From contig JAZROX010000011.1 in NCBI GenBank assembly GCA_045648945.1, positions 4,679 to 68,678 of the forward strand: 64,000 nt of DNA. The letters are read 5' to 3'. The translations under genes and the position numbers were made by a program. Below the pieces are notes generated by a model. That model worked only from the letters and a program-made list of their open reading frames with translations, was not told where the DNA came from and searched no databases. This DNA comes from Candidatus Enterousia sp. Its GTDB lineage: Bacteria > Pseudomonadota > Alphaproteobacteria > Rs-D84. Within the stretch, counting starts at the first letter, position 1. Each line of letters starts with the position of its first letter. Shown one piece after another: positions 11,516 to 50,689 of the stretch.

Positions 11516-11594
11516 GAATAAAATACGTCGGTTTGACGTATTTTTTTTCTTGCACGCGGAAAAACATGCTGGTATTATATCACGCGGTTGACAC

Positions 11595-14728: not shown

Positions 14729-14754
14729 CCACTAACCACTAACACTAACCACTA
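14729..14754 (-). repeat. short tandem (TAGTGGT/TAGTGT) repeat at a gene 3' end
   Basis: tagtggttagtgttagtggttagtgg on the lpxB sense strand; related copies after prfA, argS and tolA. Confidence 0.75.
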
Positions 14755-29079: not shown

Positions 29080-29092
29080 ATTTTTCCTCCTT

Positions 29093-29147
29093 GGTCTACC
29101 CCGTCACACTTCGTGTGCCACCCCTTCACAATGTGAAGGGGACTTTT
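29093..29147 (-). repeat. REP-like double hairpin between leader terminator and RBS
   Basis: Identical to 33703-33757; near-identical inverted copy at 45248-45302. Confidence 0.85.
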
Positions 29148-29154
29148 GGGATTT

Positions 29155-29368
29155 AAAAACCGCCAGGAATCCTGACGGTCGGGGTGTTAGCTAATCATAC
29201 TATCAACGATTCCGATGACCTTTCTATATACGCCATCGGCACCCCGACCAATATATCGGGGGACAATATTGCGGTGCAAAAACACGAAAATCACACAGAT
29301 TACGATGCCTTGCACCGGATAGTATGGGCCAGCTACGACCCCGAACCGCGGGTTCCCACCCTGGGTTC
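29155..29368 (-). ncRNA. candidate structured leader RNA/attenuator (copy B)
   Basis: TTGCAT-N18-TAGCAT promoter; GGGA-tetraloop hairpin, covarying long-range stem, terminator accgtcagg-att-cctggcggt-tttt. Confidence 0.72.
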
Positions 29369-29495
29369 TGATTCATGCTAGCAAAGTTTTATGATTTTAT
29401 GCAAGGGCTTTTTTTGCGATATGTTTTTATTCGTGTTGTTTTATGTTTCAAAATGTGGTACTATTCCATCGAAATGCAAATGCGGGGGTAAAGAT

Positions 29496-30095
29496 ATGAA
29501 AAAAATTAGAGATAAAAAGAAAGATTTAATCAGATTGGCAAAACGTGTGTATCATCATACTGCGCCGCTGTTGCTGGGCGAGGCGTTATTGTTCATCGTT
29601 ATGGCGGTTTTGATGATGGTCCGCCCGGTCGAGATTTTGTCCGCGATAACATTTGTTGTTGGGGTAATGTTGGTCGTGTTCGGACTGTATCGCACCAGTA
29701 TGGTTTTTGTGTCGTCCCAGGGTTTTACGGCCGGAACTTCGGACGTGGTTGTCGGTTTGGCCACTTTTGTGTTGGGAATCGTATTTTGCATATATCCATA
29801 CGGCGCGACCGTTGGGGTGATATATATATTTGTAGTAATGTTTTTGATGAACGCGCTGCGAATGCTATTCTTTGCGCTTAATGTGGCGCGTGCGCGTGTT
29901 GAGCGCAGGGTTTTGGACATTGTTATATCGGGTGCGCTGTGCGTGTTGGCGTTGGGATTGCTGTTTATGCCGAATGTGGCGATTGGCGTTTTGGTGTGGT
30001 TCTTGGCGATTTATATGTTGGTCTATGCCGGCGCAGACATATATATGTTCGTGCGCCTGCGGCATTTGAATCGGACGATTCGCAATATGGAATAG
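29496..30095 (+). CDS. HdeD/DUF308-like membrane protein
   Basis: Six TM segments in two repeats with G..L...P pattern. Confidence 0.7.
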   Translation: MKKIRDKKKDLIRLAKRVYHHTAPLLLGEALLFIVMAVLMMVRPVEILSAITFVVGVMLVVFGLYRTSMVFVSSQGFTAGTSDVVVGLATFVLGIVFCIYPYGATVGVIYIFVVMFLMNALRMLFFALNVARARVERRVLDIVISGALCVLALGLLFMPNVAIGVLVWFLAIYMLVYAGADIYMFVRLRHLNRTIRNME

Positions 30096-30114
30096 GGCCA
30101 ACCGCAGAATTTTA

Positions 30115-30143
30115 TTGAAAATCGCGCGCGCATAGTGTATAAT
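30115..30143 (+). promoter_or_regulatory. sigma70 promoter upstream of hisS leader
   Basis: TTGAAA-N17-TATAAT. Confidence 0.7.
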
Positions 30144-30149
30144 CGGCGT

Positions 30150-30212
30150 ATGTTTATGCAAGACCGTATTTTTTATTTCGTCCATCATGCCCGTTTGGGC
30201 AAGTGTTTCTAG
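30150..30212 (+). CDS. putative leaderless His-His leader peptide (MFMQDRIFYFVHHARLGKCF)
   Basis: ATG 7 nt after the -10 box, tandem CAT-CAT codons, overlapping alternative hairpins, directly upstream of hisS. Confidence 0.45.
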   Translation: MFMQDRIFYFVHHARLGKCF

Positions 30213-30288
30213 CGCATAAAAATCATAAAATAATTCGGTTGGGCGGTATGCCCAAAGTCAAACAATAAAAAAGCATAAGGAATAAAAA

Positions 30289-31584
30289 ATGGATTTGAAA
30301 CCAACAAAACCTTTATCGGGATTTATAGAATTACTGCCGGCGCAGCAACGCTTTGTGGACGCGTGCGCGGCGCGTATGTTGGGTGTTTTGCGCGACTGTG
30401 GTTTTTCATATCTGGATTTACCGGCAATCGAGCGGGCCGAGGTTTTGACCGATAAAGACAACTGGGACGAAATTGAAACGCAAATGTATTTGTTTCAGAA
30501 AGGTGATACAAAAATGGGGCTGCGATATGATGGGACGGTCGGTTTGTCGCGTTATGTTGCAGGCCATCTGAATGAATTGAATTTTCCGTTCCGGGCAAGC
30601 CAGTTTTCCAAACGCTATCGCGGGGAACGAAAACAACGCGGGCGTTTTCGTGAGTTTTACCAGATGGATATGGATATCATGGATATTAATTCTTTGTCCA
30701 CTAATTATGATGCAGAAATTATTTCTGTGATTGGGCGCACTTTGGATTCTGTGTCAGAATTCATTGGTGATAATTATGTCCTGGTTGGGTCGCGACCTTT
30801 TTGGGATGCGTTGTTTAATTACCTGAATTTGACGGATGCCCAGAAGAAAGAAATTTTCATCTTGATAGATAAACGCGATAAAATTGATAATGCGGAATTT
30901 AATGCGTGGCTGTCTGATATATTAAAGAATGAAAAATTGGAAAATGAAATAAAATCTGTGTTTGCAAATGGTTATGAATATTTTAGTGGTAAATCCGCTG
31001 AATTGGACGGCGCCATTAAAGAACTGACAGATTTTATGGGAAAATTGTCGATGATGGGCGTCAAAAACGCAAAGATAGATTTGTCTATTACGCGCGGTTT
31101 GGCGTATTACACCGGGTTGGTCTTTGAATTTAAATTGTCCGAATATCCCGAATTGGGAACGGCGGCCGGCGGTGGGCGGTATGCGAACCTGGTTGAAAAA
31201 TTCAGCAAGACAAAAATTATTGGGGTCGGTGCGGCAATCGGTTTTTCAAGAATCTTTGTCACGTTGGCCGAAACCGGTAAAATTGATTTAAGTAAATTTG
31301 AATCTGGAACGGATGTTGCGGTGTTGGTTATGGGGAATGAAAATTTGCCGTATGCGATGTCTGTTTTGAACGCGCTGCGCGATGCCGGGGTACCGTCTGT
31401 GGCGTATTTGGACACCGATAAAAAGTTTAAAAACCAAATCGAATATGCCGACAAAATTATGGCTAAATTCAGTATGATAATTGGCGAAAATGAAGTAAAA
31501 GATAAAGTTGTGGCCGTCAAAGATATGCGGTCGGGCGAACAACGGACTGTGGGCATCGCAGATGCAATAAAAATGGTTAAATAA
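30289..31584 (+). CDS. hisS: histidine--tRNA ligase
   Basis: [35 protein letters not shown]. Confidence 0.97.
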
Positions 31585-31594
31585 CGGGTTGAAA

Positions 31595-32659
31595 ATGGAA
31601 ATCGATCAAAAACTTTTGGATATAAAAAAACGCGCGGATGATATCCAGGCGGCGATGAATTCGGGTGACATTTCGGGTGACGAATTGACCAAGTTATCCA
31701 AGGAATATTCGCGCCTTAACGATATTTTGCCATTGGTTGACGAATATTTTCAGATAAAGCAGGGCATATCAGATGCAACCGAAATGCAACACGATGCGGA
31801 ACTGCGCGACATTGCCACAGAACAGCTGGAAGATTTAAAACATCGTATGCCAGACGTGGAAAAACGGTTACAGATTGCCTTGCTGCCGCGGGATGATGCA
31901 GACGATAACAGTGCCATTATGGAAATTCGCGCGGGGGTGGGGGGCGAAGAATCTGCTTTGTTCGCGGGCGATTTGTTTAACCAGTATAAATCCTATGCGT
32001 TGCGGCACGGGTGGAAAATTGAAATTGTGGAAGAAAACGCGACGTCTTTGCATGGGTACAAAGAAATTATATTCAAAATCGATGGCGATGGGGTCTATGC
32101 GCGCATGAAATTTGAATCTGGAATTCATCGTGTTCAACGTGTGCCGGAAACCGAGGCGGGCGGTCGTATTCACACCAGTGCGGTTTCGGTGGCGGTAATG
32201 CCCGAGGCGCAAGATATAGACGTTCAAATCGAAGAAAAAGATATTCGTATCGACGTTTTTCGTGCGTCCGGTGCGGGTGGCCAGCATGTTAATAAAACCG
32301 ATAGCGCGGTTCGTATTACGCATTTTCCGACAGGGATTGTGGTCACATGCCAAAATGAACGCAGCCAGATTCAGAACAAGGCGACGGCGATGGCGGTTCT
32401 GCGTTCAAAGTTGTATGAAAAACAGCGCAGCGAGCAAGACGCCGCGCGCACGTCTTCGCGGCGCAGTATGGTTGGTTCGGGCGATAGAAGTGAGAAAATA
32501 CGAACCTATAATTTTCCGGAACAACGTGTGACCGATCATCGTATCAAATTAACACTGTATAAATTGGATGATATTTTGGCGGGCGGCGAAGGGTTGGATG
32601 AAATGATAGACGCATTGATTTCGGCCGATCAACTGGAACGCCTTGCCGCGATGGAATAG
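31595..32659 (+). CDS. prfA: peptide chain release factor 1
   Basis: GGQ motif, PET specificity motif (RVPETE), [11 protein letters not shown]. Confidence 0.97.
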
Positions 32660-32667
32660 GGGGGGTA

Positions 32668-32691
32668 AGTGGCTAGTGTTAGTGATTAGTG
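32668..32691 (+). repeat. short tandem TAGTG-type repeat after prfA stop
   Basis: agtggctagtgttagtgattagtg. Confidence 0.7.
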
Positions 32692-32693
32692 AG

Positions 32694-32716
32694 AAACGGC
32701 GCGTTGCGCCGTTTTT
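32694..32716. terminator. bidirectional terminator
   Basis: aaacggcgc-gtt-gcgccgtttt between convergent genes. Confidence 0.7.
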
Positions 32717-33689
32717 AGTTGTTGGATGGCAAATAAAGGTTTTGAACCGGCCCGGCAATAAAATTACCATTACCAGAGTTAGTCAAGAATGTGTTTGTCA
32801 CAATATCGTACATGCCAAGTGTGCCGTCACTGTCCCGCTGCGCAGGGACGTAGTCGTGTACAATGGATGTGTTTTCCGATAATTTGAAATTATAAATTCG
32901 TGCAACGGCATTGTGGTACGCCCCACCACCACTAGGATAATTACTTGTAAACAAATAAAAATTCGATGGGTTTGAAAATGTGGCATTGGGAATAGAACAA
33001 CGCGTATTACCATCAATTGTGATAAGTTTATCATTCATATAATTTATTGTCCCAAGATGTCGTCCGATTCGTGTATTGTCGGTGGAGGCACAAGTATAAC
33101 CGGTTCCCGTTTTATGTGCGAAATACATATAGTCACCTATGCGAAAAAGCACAGTATTTGGGCCTATTACCCCAAACAAAATTTGTTCGTTTGAATTGGT
33201 ATTAGTATATTGAAAATCAAATTTGGCACCATAGGTATCATTTATTGTAATCCCCGTATCAATATATTGCTCCCCTGTGCTTTCTAAATATTCCAATTCT
33301 GTATACCCAGTGGGTAATGTGGATTTCCCAGTTGAACCGAATATATCCACCAACCAGCAATCGTTCGGATCGTTTGGATTATATTGAACACATTTAAATT
33401 CTGCATTTATGGCGTTTTGGACGGCGGTGTTCATGGTTACGGCGTCAACCAATGCGTCCGTTTGGTCGGAATAGGTGGCGGTTGAATCATAGACATTTTT
33501 CGTGCCGACGTTGCCGGCGGTGCCGGTATTGGTTAAAACCTGGGTCGTGCCGGAATTTGCGGGGATTTTGTCCTGTTTTAATGCAACGACGGTGTCAACA
33601 AAGGCTTTACTGGTCGCGACGTTTTCGCCCGCCGCAAACGCGGGCAGGGCCATTGCCGCGCAGATAACCGAGATTAAAAATGCCTTCAT
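32715..33689 (-). CDS. secreted fibre/adhesin-like protein, family member D
   Basis: Conserved stalk and head-domain framework with a divergent core; AAGGAGG RBS. Confidence 0.88.
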   Translation of the reverse strand: MKAFLISVICAAMALPAFAAGENVATSKAFVDTVVALKQDKIPANSGTTQVLTNTGTAGNVGTKNVYDSTATYSDQTDALVDAVTMNTAVQNAINAEFKCVQYNPNDPNDCWLVDIFGSTGKSTLPTGYTELEYLESTGEQYIDTGITINDTYGAKFDFQYTNTNSNEQILFGVIGPNTVLFRIGDYMYFAHKTGTGYTCASTDNTRIGRHLGTINYMNDKLITIDGNTRCSIPNATFSNPSNFYLFTSNYPSGGGAYHNAVARIYNFKLSENTSIVHDYVPAQRDSDGTLGMYDIVTNTFLTNSGNGNFIAGPVQNLYLPSNN

Positions 33690-33702
33690 ATTTTTCCTCC
33701 TT

Positions 33703-33757
33703 GGTCTACCCCGTCACACTTCGTGTGCCACCCCTTCACAATGTGAAGGGGACTTTT
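33703..33757 (-). repeat. REP-like double hairpin between leader terminator and RBS
   Basis: Identical to 29093-29147. Confidence 0.85.
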
Positions 33758-33765
33758 GGGATTTT

Positions 33766-33977
33766 AAAAACCGCCAGGAATCCTGACGGTCGGGGTGTTG
33801 GTATAATCAAATCAGCTAAGATTCCCATGGCCTTTATATATACGCCACAGGCACCCCGACCAAAATCGGGGGATATATCACGGTGCAAAAACATGAAAAA
33901 TCGAACAGATTACGATGCCTTGCACCGGCTGATTTGGGCCTACCACAGCCCCGAACCACGGGTTCCCACCTGGGTTC
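33766..33977 (-). ncRNA. candidate structured leader RNA/attenuator (copy D)
   Basis: TTGCCA-N17-TATCAT promoter; same architecture as copies B and C with compensatory changes. Confidence 0.72.
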
Positions 33978-34430
33978 AATTTGGATGATATTATATTTTC
34001 AAAATTATGGCAAGTGTTTTTTATGAATGTGTGCCAAAATTGCTGAATTTTCACGCAAAAATCGCCGATTTTTCGGCAAAAATCACAATTTGCATAAATT
34101 AAAAAATATTAGTAAAATTGGGACGTTAGTATAAATTGTTAAATTTTTGCTTTATGTTAGGGTGGGGCGGGGTGCGCGTTGTGCGAAAATCATCTAAAAA
34201 CGCCAGAATTTGCGGTGTGTGTCGCCAAAAATCGGGGTTGGGGCGGTCGAATGTTTTATGCATACCGTTATAGGGCGCAAAATTGGGCGTTTTATGGTGG
34301 TTTTGGTGCCGATGTTGATGGAAGTGTAGTTAAAATATTTTATAAACTTTGTAAAATAATAGTATGAATTTACTGTTAAAATTCTGATACATAAAAACAC
34401 AAATTTAATCGGTGGGGCAGCGATATACAA

Positions 34431-34458
34431 AAGGCGCATAATGTATATTATGTATAGT
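34431..34458 (+). other. dif-like XerCD recombination site
   Basis: AAGGCGCATAA-TGTATA-TTATGTATAGT versus E. coli dif GGTGCGCATAA-TGTATA-TTATGTTAAAT; lies in a ~1.2-kb non-coding gap. Confidence 0.7.
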
Positions 34459-34620
34459 TAAGTGTGCTAAAGCCCACTATAACTATACATAATATAAGAA
34501 TAAATAATAAGTGCTACGCATTATATAAGAATAAATAATAATAGTTAAGTGTGCTAAAGCCCACTATAACTATACATAATATAACGCCAGTATGAAGAGG
34601 CCTACTATAACTATATATAA
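34444..34620. repeat. 53-bp imperfect palindrome and local direct duplications next to dif
   Basis: tatattatgtatagtta (34444-34460) / taactatacataatata (34480-34496); 44-bp direct repeat 34454-34497 = 34541-34584; 19-bp repeat 34492-34510 = 34523-34541. Confidence 0.85.
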
Positions 34621-35276
34621 AACCGATTATTGTGTTTCAATGCTACATATAACATCGGTATAAAAATGTGTAATGGCAATGGCCCCTATTCTTGTTCTGG
34701 AATATATTTTTTGTGTTTTACGGCGTTCTGTGTCATTCGTTTATAGCGACGTGAACGTATAAATATATGCCAAATGAAAATTTGCTCGCTATTAGCTGCA
34801 TGGTATTTTTATCGATGGATTGTGCGCGCGGCGTCGTGACGTATAAATATGCGTTTTATAAAAATTTGCTCGCTCTCTGCATGCGGATAATTTTGTTTCT
34901 TTTTGTGTTTTTAACCAGAAATTTTTGTTGGCGTTTTTTGCCGTTGTTTTTTTATTGCATCTTAAAAATAATTTCTTGAGAGTTTTGAATTTGTATCGTG
35001 TCGTGTGCCTTTGTTGTTGTACGAATGTTTTTGTGGTTTTGCTAAAAACATGGTCGTTTCGGGCAAAAAAATGCGAAAACCGCCCTATTCTGCCACTAAA
35101 AATCAAAAAAATGGCGGATTTTTGCGGGTTTGCGGCGGTTTTTGCGCCTAAAATGCCCTATTTTGTTGTGTTTTTGTGGTTTTTATTAGAATTTTTGTGA
35201 AAATTCTATTGATTTGATTTTGCACTTGCGCCATGGGGTCGCAAAGTGGTATAATTTGCACCAAGGAAAGGATGTA

Positions 35277-36359
35277 TTGGTGGGGCGGATAAAGTGTATT
35301 TTTGTTGCCTTGGTTGGCGTGTTCGCGGTGTGTGCCGCGCATGCGGATTCTTGTAATCCCGGTGAATATATGGTTTGTGATCCGGATCCCTATGATAATT
35401 CTTGTACGGATTGCGGGTGTGCAAGTTGCCTGGTTGGCCAGACCAGTGATGGGAGGGGTGTTGTTTATCGTTGCCCATATGAAACGGGCGACAGTGGTTG
35501 TCATGACGCCGGTTATTGTGCGGGATTTGACACTTGTCCCGATGATGTTCCGTTGGCTCAATATCGTAAATGCAAACCGGTAACAGATTGTGGTGGGGTT
35601 GGCGGTTGCACAGGCTATAAGCTTTGTAATATCGTTAATGGTGAAGAGGCGGGATTTTTTATTCCGGCCGATAATCAGGTGTGCCATTTAGAAGGTTCAA
35701 CGTGTTATGCAAATGAACGGGCGTGCAATTTGTTTGATGTTTCCGCCGATGATTATGGTCAATGGAGTTGCCAAAAGTCCCACCAGACAGGAAATGCGCA
35801 ATGGACCCCAAGTAAAAATGCGTGGGATACATCCTATTGTCATTGTTCTATGACAAATATGAATATTGATACAACACTGGGGACGACGGTGAAATGTCAA
35901 AACGCCAATGCGACGTATCGGGTTGCCGATGCGTATAAATACAATACCAAGAAAGTTACGGATCCCGTATATTATATTCCGGCAAAGCGCTATTGCGCGC
36001 GATGCTATCCGGGCTATGTGCCGCATTCGGTCAATCCGTTTAGTGTTTGGCAGGACGGTGGCGAAACATATTATTTGATTCAATATCCCAGTGGTGGTCA
36101 AGGCAATGGTTTGTATGGTGTTGTGGCGTGCGATAATTTGGTGGTCGCGCCGTACTATGCGGATGGGTGCGTAATAGATTGGACAAAACCATCCGGAACG
36201 GCGGCCCAGAACGCGTGTAAAATATCATGTGATACAGGGATGGAGACAGTTGAAAACGGTGCAACCGGCGCAAGCGATTGTGTGCCGGCTGGTGCGACCT
36301 ATACCGATGCGACCGGAACGTTCCGATTGGGGTCGGATTCGGGTGTTTGTGGTAATTGA
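35277..36359 (+). CDS. secreted Cys-rich surface protein
   Basis: Signal peptide ending AHA, dense Cys, C-terminal GAT...C......DATGTF motif; TTGCGC..TATAAT promoter and AAGGA RBS; exact start uncertain. Confidence 0.78.
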   Translation: MVGRIKCIFVALVGVFAVCAAHADSCNPGEYMVCDPDPYDNSCTDCGCASCLVGQTSDGRGVVYRCPYETGDSGCHDAGYCAGFDTCPDDVPLAQYRKCKPVTDCGGVGGCTGYKLCNIVNGEEAGFFIPADNQVCHLEGSTCYANERACNLFDVSADDYGQWSCQKSHQTGNAQWTPSKNAWDTSYCHCSMTNMNIDTTLGTTVKCQNANATYRVADAYKYNTKKVTDPVYYIPAKRYCARCYPGYVPHSVNPFSVWQDGGETYYLIQYPSGGQGNGLYGVVACDNLVVAPYYADGCVIDWTKPSGTAAQNACKISCDTGMETVENGATGASDCVPAGATYTDATGTFRLGSDSGVCGN

Positions 36360-36418
36360 TTAAAATAGAAAAACCGCCCTGCCCTTGGCATTGGCGGTTT
36401 TTCAGACCTTATACGATT

Positions 36419-37729
36419 TTATTTTGCGTTCGCCGGTTGAAACAATTCGGTCGCCTTTACGGCCTTTTCTTTCTGTTTCACGTGGGACAACATCGCGTCC
36501 AGGGCTTTGCGTTCAAAAATCATCCCGCGCAGCATATTAAGGGCGTTTTGATTTTTGTTATAAAATTCGAATATCTGTTTCGGATCTGGATAGCGTGCGG
36601 CCTCGGCCCAAATTGCCTGTTGCAGGTCATCGCGGGTCACTTCGACTTTATTCGCGGAACCCCATTCGGCCAAAATAAGGCCCAATTTCACGCGGCGTTC
36701 GGCGTCTTTGCGTTCCTGTTTTTCGTCAAATTTGCAATCGCCGTCACATTTGCCGTCACAGTGCGCGTGACGATGTTCGTGTTCGTTCCGCGCCATTTGC
36801 AATTCTTGTTCGACCACAACTTCGGGTAAATCCAGTTTCACTTTGTCGGCCAAAATATCCAGCAATTCGTTGCGCATTTCGGATTTTGCGGCCTCGACAT
36901 ATTGTTCATTCAGAATGTTGCGAATGTGTTCGCGTAATTTCTCGACCGTTTCTTGACCAATGGATTTCGCAAATTCATCGTTCAGTTCCGGCAAGATATG
37001 TTTGCGAACCTCGTGCACGACAACCGCAAAGCGTGCCGCCTTGCCGGCCAGGTTTTCTGCATGATAATCCTTGGGGAATTTTACATTAACGTCAAATTCG
37101 TCGCCCGCCTTGTGGCCAATAACCTGGTCTTCGAATCCTGGGATAAACGCGCCGGAACCCAAAACCAAGTGGTGCATTTTTGCGGCGCCGCCTTCGAACG
37201 CGGTGTCACCAATGTAACCGGTAAAGTCAATAACCGCGGTATCGCCGTTTTGTGCGACATAGTCCGCCGGTTGTTTTTCGGCGACGCTGCGTGTGCGGCG
37301 AATGTTTTCCAATGCTTTATCAACCTCGGCCTCGTCCAGGGTTGTTGTTTTTTTCGTAACCGTGAATTTTTCCAAATCAATTTCCGGCAAAGTCGGCAAA
37401 ATATCAAATTCCAGTGTGTATTCGGCATCTGACCCGATTTCCCATTTCCCCAGGTCCGCGCGCGGTGCGCCCGCAAGGCGGATTTTCTTCTCGGTTGCAT
37501 ATTTTTCCAAATCGGCGTTCATCAGTTTATCAATGGCGTCCGCCATGGCCGATGCATTATATTTTTGGCGCAGGACGGAAAGTGGCACGTGGCCCTTGCG
37601 AAAACCGGGCATTTTAACATCTGCACCGTATTTATTCAAAACTTCGTCGGCGGCCGCCTGAATTTCGTCTGCGGTCAATGTGCCGGTCATAGAATAATGT
37701 AAATCTTTGATTTTTTCTTTTTTTATCAT
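36419..37729 (-). CDS. tig: trigger factor
   Basis: GFRKGHVP ribosome-binding motif, FKBP domain (IDFTG...FEGG, GSGAFIPGFEDQ). Confidence 0.97.
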   Translation of the reverse strand: MIKKEKIKDLHYSMTGTLTADEIQAAADEVLNKYGADVKMPGFRKGHVPLSVLRQKYNASAMADAIDKLMNADLEKYATEKKIRLAGAPRADLGKWEIGSDAEYTLEFDILPTLPEIDLEKFTVTKKTTTLDEAEVDKALENIRRTRSVAEKQPADYVAQNGDTAVIDFTGYIGDTAFEGGAAKMHHLVLGSGAFIPGFEDQVIGHKAGDEFDVNVKFPKDYHAENLAGKAARFAVVVHEVRKHILPELNDEFAKSIGQETVEKLREHIRNILNEQYVEAAKSEMRNELLDILADKVKLDLPEVVVEQELQMARNEHEHRHAHCDGKCDGDCKFDEKQERKDAERRVKLGLILAEWGSANKVEVTRDDLQQAIWAEAARYPDPKQIFEFYNKNQNALNMLRGMIFERKALDAMLSHVKQKEKAVKATELFQPANAK

Positions 37730-38009
37730 GATTTTCCCTTTGTCTAAGACGGATTTGCCGAGATAGTATACACGCTTTTTTTATTAATTCAACATATTTT
37801 GTGGTAATTATATGGCTACTCGACCCATTTTTGTAAAAGTATTGTATTTCTAGGTGTTTCAGAATATTATTATTTAACATTCAAATGTATTTATCAGATG
37901 AAAATGTGTTGAATGCTAGCAAAAAAATGAAAAATACCGATTTTTTGTGAAAAACGGTATTTTTTATTATTTTGGTGGCATAAACGCACCCAACGGTTCA
38001 AATAATCTA

Positions 38010-38381
38010 TTAAATTTCTCTTTGTGGTGTTCCAAAAGTAAATCCTGAATTAGTTTTTGTTTTTTTACCGAATGAAACACTTTTCAATTTGAACTGTTTT
38101 ATCATAGAATTAAAGAATTTCGCAATTTCTGCTGTATTTACTAATGTTGCGCCATGATTAGTGTGAACATATTCGCCGTTTGGGTCTTGAACTATCGCGT
38201 CATTACCAACTTCCAAACGCCACGTGTTTTCGGCGCCACTATGATAATATGGTGTAAAAACAGCCACAATATCTTTTCCAGAAAACAACTGCAAAACCTT
38301 TTCGTGGTCTTTGTTTTCTGCTACTTGGGTGGATGTATAATACACATCATCAAATCCAGGTATTTTATTTCCAAATTTCAT
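38010..38381 (-). CDS. hypothetical protein (transposon cargo)
   Basis: 123-aa ORF with GGAG RBS, downstream of 38399-38872. Confidence 0.65.
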   Translation of the reverse strand: MKFGNKIPGFDDVYYTSTQVAENKDHEKVLQLFSGKDIVAVFTPYYHSGAENTWRLEVGNDAIVQDPNGEYVHTNHGATLVNTAEIAKFFNSMIKQFKLKSVSFGKKTKTNSGFTFGTPQREI

Positions 38382-38398
38382 ATTTAAGCTCCGATTTT

Positions 38399-38872
38399 TT
38401 ATCTATTATCTCTCCATTTCGCTGCAATTTGTTCTGCTTGTTGAGTATAGTCCGGTCCTGTTTTTTTCCATTTACCTTTGATTCCAGCCGCAGTCGCCTT
38501 TGTAAATTCTTCGGTTTTCTGGATAGACTGCACTTTTTTAAAAGCATTCCACAAAAGTTTTTCGTCTTCCGACATGTCTTCTTCTTTTTTATCCCCATTA
38601 CTTACGTCTGAACGTGGATGCATATATAAAAGATTTGCTATCTTTTTTAAGACATCGCCATTTGAACAACCATTTTTAATAAAAGTTTCCATGGCTTTTT
38701 TATTACCACTAAAATATGCTGGTATGCATTCGTGGTAAAATTCACCCCATTCTGCTGTGTCAGCATTATTTTTAAATTGTTCTACGAATTCTGCAAAGAC
38801 ATCAAGTGGTATCTGACTATTTGCAAAAAGTTTACTTAACGCTTTAATATCTGTGTATGCATCACCTGGCAT
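38399..38872 (-). CDS. hypothetical protein (transposon cargo)
   Basis: 157-aa helical ORF with AAGGAG RBS. Confidence 0.7.
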   Translation of the reverse strand: MPGDAYTDIKALSKLFANSQIPLDVFAEFVEQFKNNADTAEWGEFYHECIPAYFSGNKKAMETFIKNGCSNGDVLKKIANLLYMHPRSDVSNGDKKEEDMSEDEKLLWNAFKKVQSIQKTEEFTKATAAGIKGKWKKTGPDYTQQAEQIAAKWRDNR

Positions 38873-39134
38873 AATAAAACTCCTTTGTTGGTTTTGACAT
38901 GATGATTATAATAAAACCAAGATTTAATTTGATACGGCTGTTAAACAACCTATAAAACAAGAAAACCGCGATTTTCGCGTTCTTTTAAAATCCGAAAGCA
39001 TCATAAAACGGTTGATTTTTTAGTTTGGTTTAATTTCAACACTAAAAATCAAGTTCAAAACCACGCGTATTGTGGTGGTGCACGATTTTTAATTCATTTC
39101 AATAAATACGAATGAACAACCAAAAGGATTTTTT

Positions 39135-39758
39135 ATGATTTATGCGTATTGTCGTGTGTCAACAACCCACCAAACCGAAGAAAACCAACGTTTTGTGATT
39201 GAAAAATTCGCGGACGAAAATAACATTAAAATTGACGTTTGGGTCAAAGAAACGATTTCAAGTGGCAAAAAACTATCGCAACGAAAACTAGGTAAATTGA
39301 TTCCAAAGTTAAAATCTGGGGATATACTCATTACAACCGAAATATCGCGTCTAGCACGTAGTTTAATGGAGTTAATGGGTATATTACAGACCTGTCTTGA
39401 AAAAGAATGTCAAATTTGGACTTTGAAAGAAAATTTTAGATTAGGAACAGACGTTCAATCAAAAGTTTTAGCGTTCGCTTTTGGTTTATCGGCTGAATTA
39501 TCAAAATCATTATTACAGGCGCGTGTTCGTGAAAGTTTGGCACGTTTAAAAGCAGACGGAAAGAAACTTGGACGACCATTTGGTTCAAAATCGCGTGAAT
39601 TAAAACTAACAAAACACAAAAAACGGCTGGAATGGATGTTAAAACGTGGATTCAGTAAGCCAAAGATAGCCAAATTATTAGGTGTTCATAAATGCACAAT
39701 CTATAATTATTTGAAAAAATCTGCCATTTCGGCAGATTCTGGTCATTCGATTTTGTAA
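39135..39758 (+). CDS. serine recombinase (resolvase/invertase family)
   Basis: YAYCRVST catalytic Ser, GDILITTEISRLARS, GKKLGRP and C-terminal HTH. Confidence 0.93.
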   Translation: MIYAYCRVSTTHQTEENQRFVIEKFADENNIKIDVWVKETISSGKKLSQRKLGKLIPKLKSGDILITTEISRLARSLMELMGILQTCLEKECQIWTLKENFRLGTDVQSKVLAFAFGLSAELSKSLLQARVRESLARLKADGKKLGRPFGSKSRELKLTKHKKRLEWMLKRGFSKPKIAKLLGVHKCTIYNYLKKSAISADSGHSIL

Positions 39759-39820
39759 AAAAACGCAAAAACCTAAGGACGTAAAATCATAAAAACCTTG
39801 AAATTCTACCAAAATAAACT

Positions 39821-40645
39821 ATGTTTGTTTATATGAATAACAAGGTAATAACAATGAATTTTACGTCACAATATTTAAGTTTTAATGATAAGATACCTGA
39901 ACACGACGATTTTTTGATTTTTCAAAAACAACCAGATTTCAGTTATAGCAGGACCAAAACATCTGCATACCATAATATACACACAGAATTGACCGAAGAT
40001 TATTTTTGGTTGTATTCCAATTATGGTAATAAAAATCCGCGTCCAAAACAGGTAATAAATACAACCAGCGGTGTATCACATGATAATTTAAGAACAGCCG
40101 AAGAAGTCGAACCTACCGACCAACTGTTCGTATTATATAGTTTTAATGATAAAACGATGTATATTTCAAACGTTAACAGTAAAGGTTTTGTGTCTAATTT
40201 ATTGATGGAAAAGATGGGTCTTGAAAGTATCAGTATAAAAAATATTTTTATGGACCGTGAACAATTTATTAACCAATTACAAGTATTAGACGAAATAAAA
40301 TTCACATCTGTGGAACGTAATTTGTTTTCTGGCGTTAACAGTATTGGTGGTGCACTTATGGACAATTATGGTATAGAAGAACCGGAAGTTTTTACAGTTT
40401 CCGCAAAATATAAGACACCAATATCAAAAAAAGTTAAAAATATGCTGGACTTATTGTCTGGACAGAAAAAAGAAGGCAACTTAAAAAAACTAATCATAGT
40501 TGGACGAGACGACCAAAATGTTGAACAAGTTTTCAATGAAGAAGCATTTACCCAAAAAGTTGTCATATCTATTTCGGAAAATGACGAAGGGTTATTCGAT
40601 CCAGAACAGGTAAAAAACAAATTATTAGAAAAAATAACCGAATAA
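39821..40645 (+). CDS. hypothetical soluble protein (transposon cargo)
   Basis: 274-aa ORF (start may be ATG 39854), closely followed by a TM gene. Confidence 0.75.
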   Translation: MFVYMNNKVITMNFTSQYLSFNDKIPEHDDFLIFQKQPDFSYSRTKTSAYHNIHTELTEDYFWLYSNYGNKNPRPKQVINTTSGVSHDNLRTAEEVEPTDQLFVLYSFNDKTMYISNVNSKGFVSNLLMEKMGLESISIKNIFMDREQFINQLQVLDEIKFTSVERNLFSGVNSIGGALMDNYGIEEPEVFTVSAKYKTPISKKVKNMLDLLSGQKKEGNLKKLIIVGRDDQNVEQVFNEEAFTQKVVISISENDEGLFDPEQVKNKLLEKITE

Positions 40646-40657
40646 AAGGTAAATAAC

Positions 40658-41131
40658 ATGCTATATAAAAAAGACAAATGGTATTTTTACAGTTTGTTTG
40701 TTGGGGCTGTATTGCTTGGTTCATTTTGTGAATTCAAACCAAAACCGGAACTTTATTCAGACCTTATAACATTTATATCAATTTTAATTGGTTTTCAAAT
40801 AACTTCGTTTTCTATGATATTTACATCGAACGTGGTTAAAAATCTTTACAACATCAAAGATATTGAAAACAAATCTATCACATTAAAACACAGGTTAAAA
40901 AATTATTATAAATTTACGTTCAATTTAGCATTGATATCAATTGTGGCTATATTTGCTTTAAGCATGTTTAATTTCAATCAAATTTCAACTTGGTGGGGAA
41001 ATATAAGTGTGTATTGGTTTAACAGATCTATCATATTTTCCATAATAGCATTGAATATATTTGCGAACTTTAAAACAATGAATTTTTTATATAAAATTTT
41101 CATCAAAGATAACGATAAACACGAACATTAA
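40658..41131 (+). CDS. hypothetical 4-TM membrane protein (transposon cargo)
   Basis: Four hydrophobic segments including LITFISILIGFQITSFSMIF. Confidence 0.75.
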   Translation: MLYKKDKWYFYSLFVGAVLLGSFCEFKPKPELYSDLITFISILIGFQITSFSMIFTSNVVKNLYNIKDIENKSITLKHRLKNYYKFTFNLALISIVAIFALSMFNFNQISTWWGNISVYWFNRSIIFSIIALNIFANFKTMNFLYKIFIKDNDKHEH

Positions 41132-41155
41132 ACTCAATAAAACTATATAATTTGA

Positions 41156-41175
41156 AATCCGCCAAATGGCGGATT
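41156..41175. terminator. bidirectional terminator
   Basis: aatccgcca-aa-tggcggatt between convergent cargo genes. Confidence 0.6.
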
Positions 41176-41176
41176 G

Positions 41177-41557
41177 TTAACTTTCAAATTGGGCTAATAA
41201 TTGTTCCAATTCATCGTGTTCCGTCACTGGTGGCAGATCTAATTCTTTGGTATAATCCAAAAAATGTGGTCTGTGTTTTGACCTGCCGTCTGAATAGACT
41301 ATGTTCGCCAGTTCATAATCGTTATGATTGGTTTCCACAAATTTCAGATTTGGAATATGCGCCAAATTGTCTCTATCAAATAAATACGGCCATTTTGCTT
41401 TAATTTGTGACAACGACTTGATTTTTGGGTTTTGTTTTTCCCAATCCATTTCTTCATCAACTTGGTCTTCAAATAATGGAACTGGTAAAACTTCTGGTTT
41501 GTCGCCAACAATCATAACCATCACAATACCGTTTGTTAATAATCTCATAGTTTTCAC
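41177..41557 (-). CDS. hypothetical protein (transposon cargo)
   Basis: 126-aa acidic ORF; start at GTG 41557 or ATG 41548 after AAAGG. Confidence 0.6.
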   Translation of the reverse strand: MKTMRLLTNGIVMVMIVGDKPEVLPVPLFEDQVDEEMDWEKQNPKIKSLSQIKAKWPYLFDRDNLAHIPNLKFVETNHNDYELANIVYSDGRSKHRPHFLDYTKELDLPPVTEHDELEQLLAQFES

Positions 41558-41803
41558 CTTTGGTTTTGTTATCTATATCCGGACATTCCGCTAAAAAATC
41601 GTTTTAGACAACAGTTTTTTCTTGGTTTTTATCTGCGAAAATCCGCGATTTTTTAATTTTTTTATATTGTCTTTCAATGGTATTTACGAATTTTTTTAAA
41701 AAATTGAAAAAACATTTTGTAGTCGCGTTCAAGATGATGAATACTATCAACAAAGGAAAGGAGAAAAATATGAAAAAAACATAAGAAACCGAAAGGATAA
41801 AAT

Positions 41804-43429
41804 ATGAAATTAGACTTTAAAAAAATTCTAAATAGAAAACAGCAAGTAATCCCTGGAACATGGGCAGATGTAAAACAAAAATATAATACTGAACAAAAAT
41901 GTGAAAAGTTATTTTTATCACATTTATGGCCTGATGGAATTGAATGTCCGAAATGTGGTTATTTCAATCAAATAACCAACAAAATACACACAGGAATTCA
42001 AAAACAAAGTGTTGAATTCAAGTGTGCAAAATGTCACAAGAAAATTATCAGACAAACCAACTGTGTTTTTACTGGGTCACCACACACTTTTCAGACGTGG
42101 TTAGAAGCGATTTATAGAGTTCCAATAAAAGAAAAATCCACTTCTTCCCAACAATTACAGGAAGAATTGGGAATTTATCAACCAAGCGCGTGGGAATTGA
42201 TTTTAAGAATTGCCCAACTTGCTAAACAACAAGATATAACGTTAAATGGGACGGTTGAAATTGACGAATGGTATGATAACAGCGACCCAAGATATAAACA
42301 CGATTATCAACAATCTATATACGGTAGCGACAAAGGTATTATTGGTGAATCTGTTCCGATTATGGGTGGTGTTCAAAGGGCAATTACAGATATAGACGAA
42401 AACGGTAAAAAAGTTGTGATACAACCTGCACAATATGTTTTTAAACAGTTAAAACTTCGTGGAGACCGTTCAGTTGCGTCACAACACATATCAGAGTTTA
42501 GAGACCAATATATACCAGACCATGAAAACGTGAATTTTTTGACATACGATGCAAAAATATACACGACAAAGGGGTTGCTCAAACACCATAAAGCCGTCAA
42601 ACACAATGTAAAAAACGATGAAACAGAAGAATCTGATAATAATCAACAAAATCAAACCAAACAAGAAAAAACGCCACATTGTGCAAAATACGTTGATGAG
42701 GACGGAAATCATACGAATAACGTGGAAGGATTGTTTTCCAGAGTTTCAAAATATAAAAAGGGAACTCATAATTTATTATCACCAAAATATGAACAAATGT
42801 ATTTAGATATGCAGATGTTTCGTGAAAATAACAGACACCTAACCACAGAAGAAAAAATTCACAAATATCTATCATATTTGCCAATGGTTCCACATGTAAA
42901 TATAGATGACCTTATTGGTGACGAACCAACAGGATTTTTAAAGAAAACAACACGATTTGCGTGTAAGGACCATCCAAATTTGATGAAAGAATTAAATGAT
43001 GTTCCAATTGAAAAAGTCGTTTACAGAAATGATTTTCTGAAAATGGTTCAAGATATAGGTATGGATTTGGCAGGTCCAAATGCTGAAAAAACATTGGAAA
43101 GATTGTATATGCGTCAAGCAATGAAACAAGTGTTGCCAGAATTCGTGGAATTAGCCAAAAATATGGATGAAGCCACACAGGCGGAATTTTATGAACATAT
43201 TTTGAATGAATTGACAGAAATACCTTGGGATGAAAGATATTGGTTTATAAATAACGATTTGAAAAACAGGTTAGATATTGGCGAAATCGTTCATTCTGAT
43301 AAAAATGTTCCTGGTGAACCAGAACAATTTAAACAACGAATGACGGCTAGAAAACAACGGGAAAACGCGAAAAAAAGACGTCAAGAAAAGAAAGAAAACG
43401 AAAAGAAAAAATCCGAAGAAAAATCCTAA
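41804..43429 (+). CDS. divergent IS1595-family transposase-like protein with C-terminal extension
   Basis: WPDGIECPKC..CAKC Zn ribbon, SSQQLQEELGIYQPSAW HTH, VEIDEWY, TNNVEG; second catalytic motif reads LTYD; ~190-aa extra C-terminal region. Confidence 0.85.
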   Translation: MKLDFKKILNRKQQVIPGTWADVKQKYNTEQKCEKLFLSHLWPDGIECPKCGYFNQITNKIHTGIQKQSVEFKCAKCHKKIIRQTNCVFTGSPHTFQTWLEAIYRVPIKEKSTSSQQLQEELGIYQPSAWELILRIAQLAKQQDITLNGTVEIDEWYDNSDPRYKHDYQQSIYGSDKGIIGESVPIMGGVQRAITDIDENGKKVVIQPAQYVFKQLKLRGDRSVASQHISEFRDQYIPDHENVNFLTYDAKIYTTKGLLKHHKAVKHNVKNDETEESDNNQQNQTKQEKTPHCAKYVDEDGNHTNNVEGLFSRVSKYKKGTHNLLSPKYEQMYLDMQMFRENNRHLTTEEKIHKYLSYLPMVPHVNIDDLIGDEPTGFLKKTTRFACKDHPNLMKELNDVPIEKVVYRNDFLKMVQDIGMDLAGPNAEKTLERLYMRQAMKQVLPEFVELAKNMDEATQAEFYEHILNELTEIPWDERYWFINNDLKNRLDIGEIVHSDKNVPGEPEQFKQRMTARKQRENAKKRRQEKKENEKKKSEEKS

Positions 43430-43494
43430 AAAATCGTTGTCTTCCAATAAAAAATAGCGGACCGTTATAGTGTAAAAACAAAAGGATTTATACT

Positions 43495-44484
43495 ATGGCG
43501 TTTCAAAGTATTCATAAGTTAATGCAAGAATACAACACAGAAGATAAATGTCGCGAATGGTTCGTTCATCATCGTTGGCCTAACGGTGTTGAATGTCCAT
43601 TCTGCGGTAATAAAGACGGTCAAAAAACGATTTGTCGTTTAACCAAAGGTGCTGAAAAAGGCTGTTTTCTGTGTCGTGCTTGCAAAAAGAAATTTTCAGT
43701 TCGGAATAATTCATTTATGGGTAAATCACGTATTCCATATTCTAAATGGTTAATGGCGATTTATTTCGTTATCAACCATAAACGCGGTATTTCGTCTTTA
43801 CAACTGGCGCGTAATATCGGTGTCACCCAATCAACAGCATGGTTTATGGCTCAACGTATATTCAATATCGTAAATTCAGATAATGCTGTTTTGAATGGTA
43901 TTGTTGAAATGGACGAAGTTTATATCGGTGGTGCTGAAAAAAACAAACGTCCAGACAGACGCGTCAATAATTCAAACAAGTATCTTAACGATAAAATGTC
44001 TGTTTTGGGTATGTTGGAACGTGGCGGAAAAGTTATTTTACGTCAATACGAAGGCAAACAATATAAATACATGGAACCAGTTATTGAACATCATATCGGT
44101 AAAAACGCGACAGTATATACTGACGAAAGTCCACTTTATAAAGGCGGAATAAATGGTCGTCAGCATAATTGCGTAAATCACAGTAAAGGTATTTATGGAA
44201 TCGGCAGTATCACAACGAACAGGATTGAGGGTATGTTTTCACAGTTAAAACGTATGATTTTGGGTATTCACGTGTTCGTGACACGTGGACACTTTAAACG
44301 TTATGCTGATATGTTCAGTTTCAGAATGGACACGCGTGAATTGACTGAATACGAACGTTTAGATTTGTTAATGACACAAGTCAACGGAACACGTATCAAA
44401 TTTGACGAAATATCGTGTCATGGTAATCCAGGAACGAAAAAATGGTTTCCACACTACGGAAGCAAAAGAAAAATTGTTTTATAA
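43495..44484 (+). CDS. IS1595-family transposase
   Basis: RWPNGVECPFC..CRAC, ISSLQLARNIGVTQSTAW, VEMDEVYIGG, VYTDE, TTNRIEG. Confidence 0.95.
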   Translation: MAFQSIHKLMQEYNTEDKCREWFVHHRWPNGVECPFCGNKDGQKTICRLTKGAEKGCFLCRACKKKFSVRNNSFMGKSRIPYSKWLMAIYFVINHKRGISSLQLARNIGVTQSTAWFMAQRIFNIVNSDNAVLNGIVEMDEVYIGGAEKNKRPDRRVNNSNKYLNDKMSVLGMLERGGKVILRQYEGKQYKYMEPVIEHHIGKNATVYTDESPLYKGGINGRQHNCVNHSKGIYGIGSITTNRIEGMFSQLKRMILGIHVFVTRGHFKRYADMFSFRMDTRELTEYERLDLLMTQVNGTRIKFDEISCHGNPGTKKWFPHYGSKRKIVL

Positions 44485-44499
44485 CCGAAAGGATTTAAA

Positions 44500-44658
44500 A
44501 TGGGAACAGCAGTTCAAATGGGTGATGAAATAGTCGTGTCAAATTCAATCGGAAGTGTGACACGAAAATTCAAAGGACGTTTAATCAGTTATATTAACGG
44601 AATCTTGACCTATGTGCCATTCAATGGCGGTTTATGTTCAATGTATGTTGGATTATAA
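44500..44658 (+). CDS. small hypothetical protein (52 aa)
   Basis: ATG after AAAGGATTT RBS (as for the element's other genes), MGTAVQMGDEIVV...YVGL, followed by a terminator-like hairpin. Confidence 0.4.
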   Translation: MGTAVQMGDEIVVSNSIGSVTRKFKGRLISYINGILTYVPFNGGLCSMYVGL

Positions 44659-45036
44659 AATCTGTGCGATAATATGCCGCCAAACTCATAAAAAGCACCA
44701 TTTTCTTACGAAAACTGGTGTTTTTTAATTCCTTTGCCAGCATGTGTGCAAATATTATAAAAACATTTTGTAGTTCAGATTTGATTATGATAAATTCGTA
44801 TGGGAATATTTTTTCAAAAATCATGTGATAACCATAAAAATGTTTTCTCGTAAATTGTTGAAAAAATATTTTTTTGATATTTAATAGAGTTTTTGCTTTG
44901 TTTGTTCAGTAAAAACAATATGTTATATGTGTTCAAACACAATATTTAAACTACAACGAGTCGAGTAGCCATATAATTACCTATTTTGTGGTTTTCCCCT
45001 TGACCCCAAAAAAGGATTTTTGATAGAATAAGAATT

Positions 45037-45239
45037 GAACCAGGGTGGGAGCCCGCGGTTCGGGGCTGTGACAAGCCTGTGCCAGTTCGACGCAGGAAGG
45101 TTTTCCGTGTGCCGTGAAATATTCCCCGATATTTCGTCGGGGTGCCGATGGTTATAATGCGCTGTCAAAAGGCCTATCGGAATCACTTAACTGGTATGAT
45201 TTGTCAACGCCCCGACCGTCAGGATTCCTGGCGGTTTTT
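45037..45239 (+). ncRNA. candidate structured leader RNA/attenuator (copy C)
   Basis: TTGACC-N18-TAGAAT promoter; GGGT-GGGA-GCCC hairpin, tgacaag..tgccagtt / aactggta..tttgtca stem, terminator accgtcaggattcctggcggttttt. Confidence 0.72.
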
Positions 45240-45247
45240 AAAACCCC

Positions 45248-45302
45248 AAAAGTCCCCTTCACATTGTGAAGGGGTGGCACACGAAGTGTGGCGGGGTAGA
45301 CC
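45248..45302 (+). repeat. REP-like double hairpin between leader terminator and RBS
   Basis: Inverted near-identical copy of 29093-29147. Confidence 0.85.
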
Positions 45303-45315
45303 AAGGAGGAAAAAT

Positions 45316-50612: not shown

Positions 50613-50689
50613 CGGGGCGTAGCTCAGTCTGGTAGAGTGCTTGCTTTGGGAGCAAGATGTCGTAGGTTCGAATCCTGTCGCCCCGACCA
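50613..50689 (+). tRNA. tRNA-Pro(TGG)
   Basis: Anticodon loop TTTGGGA, C1:G72, CCA end. Confidence 0.96.

Follow-up and report, generated by a model that had tools for sequence, protein, structure and literature searches.

A family of structured leader RNAs was found in Candidatus Enterousia sp., and three of its copies lie in the window, the whole stretch of 64,000 nucleotides (nt) that was analysed (contig JAZROX010000011.1, positions 4,679 to 68,678). It is close to certain that this family is genuine, and its four-way-junction fold with an intact intrinsic terminator, called state A here, is backed by covariation. In a second fold, state B, the base of the terminator would be taken up by another helix. 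The leader probably switches transcription on and off, and on balance we favour a cis-acting, two-state transcription attenuator that is off by default. The original prediction, made from the letters of the window, had described three copies of such an element. This understated the family, which has at least 19 copies in the genome (1.25 Mb in 61 contigs, 93.6% complete, 44% G+C).

Fold, spread and placement of the leader

Further copies were first shown by BLAST on the genome, and RNAalifold analysis of a MAFFT alignment of 10 copies from this genome revealed 53 pairs, 26 of which carried a compensatory double change. The fold was composed of the 5' hairpin P0, the helix P1 (S1 TTCGGGG with S4 CCCCGA), the long-range helices P2 and P2b, and the hairpins P3, P4 (S2 CCCCGA with S3 TCGGGG) and P5, together with a four-way junction and the terminator. 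The 5' hairpin with its GGGA loop, the long-range stems that differ in sequence yet stay paired (P2 and P2b) and the covarying inner hairpin (P5), all read by the original prediction from the window copies, reappeared in this fold. In an alignment of 31 relatives from other genomes, which had been fitted to the covariance model and therefore favours the observed values, 94.5% of the cells were paired, versus 41-46% when the partners were slid by 1-3 columns. The same alignment showed double changes in 47 of the 53 pairs, with covariation in P2 and P2b, and none of 500 shuffles reached any of the observed measures, so the covariation that had been anticipated was recovered with the limit of a fitted alignment. 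The 10-copy MAFFT alignment was unfitted and gave the same helices. The parts of the leader were conserved to different degrees among six close copies: P2b was the most variable part, with a mean pairwise identity of 0.44 versus 0.70 in the unpaired columns, and P3, P4 and P1 reached 0.86-1.00. Conserved unpaired nucleotides (GAATCA, TGATTT and GCCC) were located at the junction, and a conserved internal loop of the type UAUACAACA...GAAAG was recognised by eye in P5. GGGA was the commonest P0 loop among the relatives, where the loop is a near-invariant GNRA tetraloop.

A covariance model built from the ten-copy alignment (R1) gave 19 matches in the own genome, one of which was a weak echo on the opposite strand; to the remaining 18, a motif scan added one copy resembling class II. 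Class I comprised 11 copies scoring 100-213 bits with R1, and class II comprised seven shorter copies (150-190 nt, 23-38 bits). When the 30-nt 5' hairpin string of copy B was searched with up to 3 mismatches, it matched itself alone, because the other copies differ by insertions and deletions; this result is not evidence against the hairpin. Within the own genus, the leader was present in all 24 sampled genomes, and one genome of about 1 Mb had 49 matches. Two other genera of the same order carried it in 5/6 and 2/2 genomes, and the remaining seven genera sampled in the order gave 0/7. Additionally, 14 further alphaproteobacterial genera were found to have the leader when 150 genera were sampled with one genome per family, and the matches there were mostly full-length with the parts in the same order. 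A gapped motif scan covering one genome per GTDB species returned at least 119 stretches. Among the 80 matches listed, nearly all were titled Candidatus Enterousia, Alphaproteobacteria or Rickettsiales metagenome-assembled genomes, from animal and human guts, and R1 confirmed 79 of these 80 loci, the exception being one contig labelled 'Planctomycetota'. The relatives bearing the leader were labelled Candidatus Enterousia / Rs-D84. In the available text of a recent description (PMC12306168, 2025), Candidatus Enterousia (order Rs-D84) are uncultured fermentative gut bacteria with genomes mostly below 1 Mb.

The position of the leader was similarly uniform. Among the 128 matches with enough flanking sequence, 98 had a sigma70-like promoter (TTGnnn-N16-18-TAnnnT) just upstream, versus 323 of 5000 random windows (6.5%), and in 71 of these 98 the -10 element ended 3-5 nt before the start of the match. 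At the other end, at least 6 T occurred in the last 12 nt of 121/128 leaders. A Shine-Dalgarno (SD) sequence and an open reading frame (ORF) of at least 45 amino acids (aa) followed on the same strand after 120 of 133 matches. The distance from the end of the match to the start codon had a median of 23 nt and was 13-37 nt in 96 of the 120, and therefore a second promoter has no room in most copies; the objection that the genes might use a separate promoter downstream of the terminator was answered to that extent. The window copies were three of the 15 leaders with a longer spacer, because a separate 73-nt repeat is inserted there. As read from the sequence, the element appears to be a promoter-proximal cis leader with the placement of an attenuator. 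In two alphaproteobacterial relatives without a terminator, S4 (CTCCCC) was seen by eye about 15 nt before a GGGGGA SD, with S3 and S1 resembling SD mimics and S4 resembling an anti-SD; translational versions of the switch may exist.

In the window, the three copies were recovered with their promoters where they had been predicted, as class I leaders with the order promoter, structured RNA, terminator, 73-nt module and gene. In each, a structured stretch of about 210 nt lies between a sigma70-like promoter and an identical terminator hairpin. The identity of this terminator, predicted to precede the ribosome-binding site, was borne out by its 25-nt string, which occurred exactly 3 times in the window versus 0 expected from 100 shuffles of it. 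The minimum free energy (MFE) of copy B was -99.8 kcal/mol (z = -7.2), and none of 200 shuffles folded as well. The features of the three copies are as follows.

29375-29404 (-): copy B promoter; -35 TTGCAT at 29399-29404, 18-nt spacer, -10 TAGCAT at 29375-29380
29153-29370 (-): copy B leader RNA, running from roughly the start of transcription as far as the U-tract of the terminator; R1 score 210 bits
29345-29366 (-): copy B P0, the 5' hairpin with a GGGA tetraloop
29339-29345 (-): copy B S1 TTCGGGG, the partner of S4 in state A (helix P1)
29318-29335 (-): copy B 5' strands of P2 (29329-29335) and P2b (29318-29325), copy-specific hypervariable helices
29272-29317 (-): copy B P3 hairpin, optional, being shortened or missing in class II and some relatives
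29240-29262 (-): copy B P4 hairpin, S2 CCCCCGA (29256-29262) with S3 GGTCGGGGTG (29240-29249); S3 is used by both folds
29212-29239 (-): copy B P5 hairpin
29188-29204 (-): copy B 3' strands of P2b (29197-29204) and P2 (29188-29194), separated by the conserved TGATT
29177-29186 (-): copy B S4 CACCCCGACC, partner of S1 (state A) or S3 (state B); its final 3 nt belong to the terminator stem, at its base
29154-29179 (-): copy B intrinsic terminator ACCGTCAGG-ATT-CCTGGCGGT with U-tract
29080-29152 (-): copy B 73-nt two-hairpin module, from the terminator to the start codon, including the SD AAGGAGG
28102-29079 (-): copy B downstream gene P0001, a 325-aa secreted protein with no family match
33985-34013 (-): copy D promoter; -35 TTGCCA at 34008-34013, 17-nt spacer, -10 TATCAT at 33985-33990
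33764-33980 (-): copy D leader RNA; S3 at 33852-33861, S4 at 33788-33797, terminator at 33765-33790; 211.6 bits with R1
33690-33763 (-): copy D 73-nt module with SD
32715-33689 (-): copy D downstream gene P0002, a 324-aa secreted paralogue
45000-45029 (+): copy C promoter; -35 TTGACC at 45000-45005, 18-nt spacer, -10 TAGAAT at 45024-45029
45034-45241 (+): copy C leader RNA, in which P3 is shortened; S3 at 45135-45144, S4 at 45208-45217, terminator at 45215-45240; 149.8 bits with R1
45242-45315 (+): copy C 73-nt module with SD
45316-46293 (+): copy C downstream gene P0004, a 325-aa secreted paralogue, 86% identical to P0001

The copies were mosaic. Between B and C, the identity was 55% in the promoter, 72% in the leader core, 96% across S4, terminator and module, and 88% in the coding sequence. 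The 73-nt module was a separate repeat with about 20 further loci in the genome besides the three window copies. It combined a CCCCTTCA-n5-TGAAGGGG hairpin with a second hairpin, in which changes from copy to copy were compensatory, followed by GGGGTAGAC. Many of its copies were not beside a leader, some had their own terminator after them, and the repeat had no match in Rfam. Short intergenic tandem arrays of TTAGTG(G), with 3-9 units each, were counted 64 times genome-wide; those of the window were located at about 14730-14756 (-), 32672-32691 (+) and 63084-63110 (+). Several of the arrays directly adjoined leaders or leader promoters, and a role as protein-binding sites or as slippage-prone repeats is conceivable. 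The ordinary RNAs of the window were a class A RNase P RNA (185 bits) and five tRNA genes, of which four formed one cluster (63216-63555 (-); 11344-11855 (+); 50613-50686 (+)).

The competing helix S3:S4 and the balance of the two folds

The consensus segments were TTCGGGG for S1, CCCCGA for S2, GGTCGGGGNG for S3 and CNCCCCGACC for S4, and S3 was fully complementary to S4. S3 consists of the 3' arm of P4 with its flanks, and S4 overlaps the bottom of the terminator stem by its final three bases. The two segments form a 10-bp helix that cannot coexist with P1 or P4, and by a topological argument it would also be incompatible with P2, because merely 1-2 nt join P2 to S4. In the alignment A3 of 84 sequences, 98.5% of the cells of this helix were paired, with the helix fixed by the gapped search pattern except at the N positions, which had been left free. 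The N:N pair, which lies outside P1 and P4, was AU in 34 sequences, UA in 20, GU in 18, GC in 3, UG in 3 and another combination in 4 (n=82 of 84, 2 gapped). The slid controls for this pair showed almost no covariation, and an independent set of 31 sequences agreed. The original prediction had noted the CCCCGA/TCGGGG hairpin, which is P4, and had suggested that its 3' arm could pair instead with the segment reading CACCCCGACC in copy B; this alternative pairing was found to have covariation of its own. Additionally, the class II copies altered S2, S3 and S4 jointly, to CTCCAA, GGTTGGAGG and CCTCCAACC, respectively. Two helper hairpins of state B, P6 (GAATCA/TGATTT) and P7 (GGGGC/GCCC, S1 with GCCC), were 83-85% paired and had a few compensatory cases. 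By eye, an NTG was also noticed downstream of the SD-like S3, within the 5' arm of P5, which gave the idea of a leader peptide.

The energies of the two folds were compared in 49 leaders with canonical segments. In the MFE structure of the leaders cut just after S4, S4 was paired with S1 in 48/49, and forcing the S3:S4 helix cost a median of 7.7 kcal/mol in these cut leaders and 12.1 kcal/mol at full length, as calculated with an energy model that leaves out pseudoknots and folding kinetics. State A is therefore the predicted ground state, which agrees with the default-off behaviour proposed by the original prediction. With the terminator state as the default, expression needs something that favours state B, unless the terminator leaks.

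In the mechanism that we favour, transcription would start a few bases past the sigma70-type promoter and yield an RNA carrying S1, S2, S3 and S4. In state A, S1:S4 (P1) and S2:S3 (P4) would form together with P2, P2b, P3 and P5 to give a closed four-way junction, and the hairpin 3' of S4 would form fully, so that transcription would terminate about 20 nt before the SD and the gene would be off. In state B, the 10-bp S3:S4 helix would close a three-way junction, which is the fold of the Rfam family sRNA-Xcc1, and would use up the three bottom base pairs of the terminator. RNA polymerase would then read through, and the gene would be on. We infer that termination and read-through are real and that something shifts the balance between A and B.

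Several points weigh against this mechanism. The paired percentages are inflated, the alignments being fitted to the model, and P1 (S1:S4) was almost without independent covariation. State B leans mainly on one covarying pair, and the rest of its helix is nearly invariant; P6 and P7 are possible helices at best, as some of the controls came close to them. By nearest-neighbour energies, state B is predicted to be 8-12 kcal/mol less stable than state A, and its formation would be hard to see without an extra factor. The S3:S4 helix could also be the fold of a released small RNA instead of an antiterminator. Moreover, termination, read-through and the 5' end were all derived from the sequence.

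Kinship with sRNA-Xcc1 and the genes behind the leader

The original prediction had recognised no known Rfam family. This held at the gathering score, at which a scan of the whole window returned nothing but RNase P and five tRNAs; below that threshold, matches to sRNA-Xcc1 appeared, and this family appears to be related. MicL (14.3 bits), the sole match of copy B in the E-value scan, was dismissed as chance. The class II copies repeatedly scored 32-34.7 bits against sRNA-Xcc1 (RF02221), under its gathering score of 53, and the class I copies scored 21-22.5 bits. All 6 RF02221 matches in the own genome up to E = 1 (21-34.7 bits), two of them class I, fell exactly on S3..S4 of a leader, and the closing stem of the RF02221 consensus aligned to S3:S4. 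Since 2010-2012, sRNA-Xcc1 has been annotated as a trans-acting, integron/plasmid-borne small RNA of Xanthomonas.

Bona fide sRNA-Xcc1, scoring over the cut-off, was present in 24 of 151 sampled Proteobacteria, and 20 loci were fetched. R1 matched 2 of them full-length and in register (E 1.6e-6 and 2.8e-4) and did not match the other 18. On the two matched loci, the approximately 100 nt upstream of the Rfam match corresponded to P0-S1-P2-P2b-P3, and the RF02221 part fell on S3..S4. In all 18 bona fide loci with a downstream ORF, the 3' half of the RNA contained a perfect complement of at least 7 nt to its own upstream region, with a mean of 8.8 nt versus 6.2 nt against other loci. The complementary parts were the variable loop of the second hairpin and the joiner, and the target was located about 100 nt upstream. 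Ten of the 18 had such a complement (mean 6.6 nt vs 5.0 nt) at the translation start of their own downstream gene too, in the stretch from its SD to its start codon. Such an arrangement points to a cis design of anti-start-site and decoy rather than to a free trans-acting small RNA. Bro-N/P22-antirepressor or Rha proteins were encoded downstream in 4 of the 10 sRNA-Xcc1 loci scanned. The accessible parts of three reports place sRNA-Xcc1 upstream of symE in integron cassettes (bioRxiv 10.1101/2025.06.18.660453) and, for APSE phages, ahead of an ORF6N gene (bioRxiv 10.1101/2020.03.17.996009), and map an 88-nt species in Xanthomonas by rapid amplification of cDNA ends and Northern blot (PMC2996969). 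A cis two-state leader was not described in the parts available of the literature found under the names Enterousia or sRNA-Xcc1, and other names were not searched.

The two families have in common a three-way junction with a 9-10-bp G-rich/C-rich closing stem (S3:S4 in the present leaders). In both, the internal loop of the first hairpin is of the AUACAA.../GAA.AG type, and there is a second hairpin as well as a joiner of about 6 nt. Like the leaders, the sRNA-Xcc1 loci carry a promoter and a 5' hairpin, and in 18/18 of them the variable parts of the 3' half find a complement in the 5' half. Among the differences, the Rfam model spans the 3' half alone, and in the window family an intrinsic terminator follows directly after S4. 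The complementarity to the start region seen in 10/18 sRNA-Xcc1 loci had no copy-specific counterpart in the window family, which also has far more copies per genome and heads envelope genes instead of phage antirepressor-type genes. On this evidence, what Rfam lists as sRNA-Xcc1 appears to cover just the 3' half of a more extended cis leader, misfiled as a trans-acting small RNA, and the window family would be a distant, highly amplified relative of the sRNA-Xcc1-type leader, not a categorically new RNA.

Three known systems resemble the leader by description. In work of Citron and Schuster (1990) and Biere et al. (1992), the variable loops of the c4 RNA of phages P1 and P7 are said to be complementary to both upstream and downstream sites in the same transcript and to set the specificity. 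Like c4 (immI; Rfam C4, RF01695), the leader is a co-transcribed structured RNA whose variable parts are complementary to upstream sequence of the same transcript, although E-value scans of the leaders, run up to E = 10 or 1, gave no match to the Rfam C4 model. The output of c4 is translational repression followed by Rho-dependent termination, whereas that of the window family would be an intrinsic terminator, with no target at the downstream ribosome-binding site. According to the text available of one report, C4 RNA and Icd regulate Ant (PMC8201110). For IsrK of Salmonella Gifsy-1, the available text of another describes an own terminator that gives a short RNA and a read-through mRNA, alternative structures that decide activity, and an action of the short form on the long one (PMC4825925). 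The likeness of IsrK lies in a promoter-proximal RNA with a terminator and in short and read-through forms, and it is one of description; IsrK differs in controlling translation of the long isoform in trans from a single prophage locus, whereas the window family is multi-copy. Terminator/antiterminator riboswitches and PyrR attenuators also have mutually exclusive anti-antiterminator, antiterminator and terminator helices before the SD. Unlike these, the window family has a regulon without a metabolic theme and no Rfam riboswitch match.

The original prediction had assigned the leaders to the control of one variable adhesin family, and this was not upheld. The 120 downstream ORFs fell into 67 unrelated clusters, 48 of them singletons, and a hydrophobic N-terminus was present in 79 of the 120 by a crude test. 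Analysis of 89 complete ORFs of other genomes with Pfam revealed 36 families and no common pathway. Surface families among them were the outer-membrane beta-barrel (5), opacity porin (2), YadA anchor (2) and Listeria-Bacteroides repeats (3); enzymes for sugars and the surface included family-2 and family-9 glycosyltransferases, RgpF, LicD, acyltransferase-3 and polysaccharide pyruvyl transferase; and the others comprised EcoRI-type and N6/N4 DNA methylases and helix-turn-helix (HTH) proteins. In our own comparison, the controlled set resembles what host-associated bacteria carry as surface and contingency genes. Most of its genes code for proteins of the envelope or surface or for enzymes that modify the surface, and the contingency set meant here comprises outer-membrane and adhesin-like proteins, surface-sugar enzymes and DNA methylases. 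Seven class I copies of the own genome headed the window protein family, whose members in the window are 324-325 aa long with a signal peptide; both ends of the protein are conserved, the N-terminal one over about 110 aa, and the middle is variable. No match to this family was found in Pfam, NCBIfam, PHROGs or PDB sequences. Five class II copies of the own genome headed paralogous HTH (XRE-like) proteins of 71-73 aa (at C52:103616, C13:4373, C13:28306, C12:25369 and C27:78596). These five genes stood singly between housekeeping genes, such as mutL/yajC and mutS/infC, and from their position they would be an unusual set of RNA-gated mini-regulators.

Candidate triggers and what the switch would mean

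Candidate partners of the leader were searched for in the own genome. No GGDEF, DAC or RelA/SpoT domain was found in this 93.6%-complete genome, and the search controls matched; the usual global nucleotide signals are therefore argued against as ligands. The NusG family (PF02357) had one match, with no second NusG of the RfaH, LoaP or UpxY type; no Hfq was found, and no CsrA above the cut-off, the nearest being 20.3 bits inside a 584-aa frame. Rho was present. The search for ANTAR in this genome gave no match, and its control also matched in 0/14 genomes. Targeting of the own translation start by the variable strands was tried and rejected for this family, since the mean duplex energy was -6.29 kcal/mol for the own site and -5.93 kcal/mol for the others (Wilcoxon p = 0.43, n=94).

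If the attenuator is real, we would tentatively look first, by analogy with c4 and IsrK, for an RNA-RNA event at a copy-specific P2/P2b 'address', an idea that still falls short of being probable. The hypervariable, self-complementary P2/P2b and the antisense relatives would suit such a mechanism, and a compact sensor could use the conserved GGGA tetraloop, the conserved P5 internal loop common with sRNA-Xcc1 (seen by eye) and the conserved junction bases. A ligand, whether small molecule or ion, is a doubtful trigger, and so is the classical riboswitch as a whole, in which an aptamer formed by the four-way junction, or in state B by the three-way junction, would shift the balance between A and B. 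The multi-helix junction with conserved unpaired GAATCA, TGATTT and GCCC, the conserved P5 internal loop (by eye), the near-invariant GNRA (GGGA) tetraloop and the terminator/antiterminator expression platform all fit an aptamer, and the scarcity of protein partners (a single NusG, no Hfq or CsrA) points the same way. Against these stand a regulon without a metabolic theme (beta-barrels, YadA anchors, glycosyltransferases, LicD, acyltransferase, methylases, HTH), the Bro-N or Rha antirepressor types headed by 4/10 of the related sRNA-Xcc1 loci scanned, and the failure to find GGDEF, DAC or RelA/SpoT in the own genome.

A heterogeneous envelope regulon could be co-regulated by a single protein factor, for which the conserved loops could serve as a site. 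The logic of a P4 anti-antiterminator, an S3:S4 antiterminator and a terminator resembles the three-hairpin design of PyrR/BglG, and a dedicated RNA-binding protein could decide termination as an antiterminator, as a PyrR-like stabiliser of the anti-antiterminator or as a processive antitermination factor. The same genome search argues against this, as it gave no second NusG, no Hfq and no CsrA above the cut-off; no conserved neighbouring regulator gene was seen, and the class II units were single genes between housekeeping genes. We regard a protein as a rather unlikely trigger, and the protein-decided termination just outlined as rather unlikely too.

It is unlikely, and somewhat more so, that the locus is a small-RNA gene of the sRNA-Xcc1/c4/IsrK kind, whose terminated and perhaps processed RNA acts in trans, with gene expression being read-through. 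The sRNA-Xcc1 fold of the 3' half speaks for it, as do, in the available text of the reports, the 88-nt species of Xanthomonas (PMC2996969) and the IsrK precedent of a short terminated and a read-through form (PMC4825925); hypervariability of P2b (0.44 vs 0.70) is also what would be expected of an address sequence. The placement of 120/133 copies directly before an SD and ORF in the same orientation speaks for a cis role instead, the variable strands had no copy-specific complementarity to the own start region (p = 0.43, n=94), and state A pairs the 'address' strands together in cis, so that they are not free. Finally, neither a fixed leaky terminator without any trigger nor a constitutive 5' cassette without a switch (an insulator, leaky terminator or mRNA stabiliser spread with its promoter by recombination) is at all likely: the mosaic of B and C, the 67 unrelated gene clusters and the strong preference for state A would fit the cassette, but a strong terminator 20 nt before the SD would merely silence the genes, the S3:S4 pair covaries although it lies outside state A, and S2, S3 and S4 change jointly between the classes.

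Within the attenuator that we favour, one further reading is speculative, and as a whole distinctly improbable: each leader could be an RNA-only, self-addressed bistable switch with locus-specific positive feedback. Terminated leaders would be processed to free the 3' three-way-junction RNA, whose exposed P2b-3' (loop) and P2-3' (joiner) would pair in trans with the nascent 5' half of transcripts from the same locus and no other. With P2/P2b thereby blocked in cis, the nascent 3' half would fold S3:S4 and read-through would follow. If this were true, it would amount to an RNA-based, DNA-sequence-independent phase variation of individual surface, glycosyltransferase and methylase genes, and the hypervariable P2/P2b helices would be orthogonal addresses that prevent cross-talk among 10-50 switches in a bacterium with few regulators.

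The re-reading of Rfam sRNA-Xcc1 would make it the 3' half of a two-state cis leader that stands before mobile-element genes across Proteobacteria, and the modular, addressable design of the switch would offer a compact test case. For the uncultured gut Alphaproteobacteria with reduced genomes (~1 Mb), the leader is a strong candidate for the control of the surface, because it heads 10 to ~50 genes per genome that form a typical contingency set, and few regulators were found in the one genome searched.

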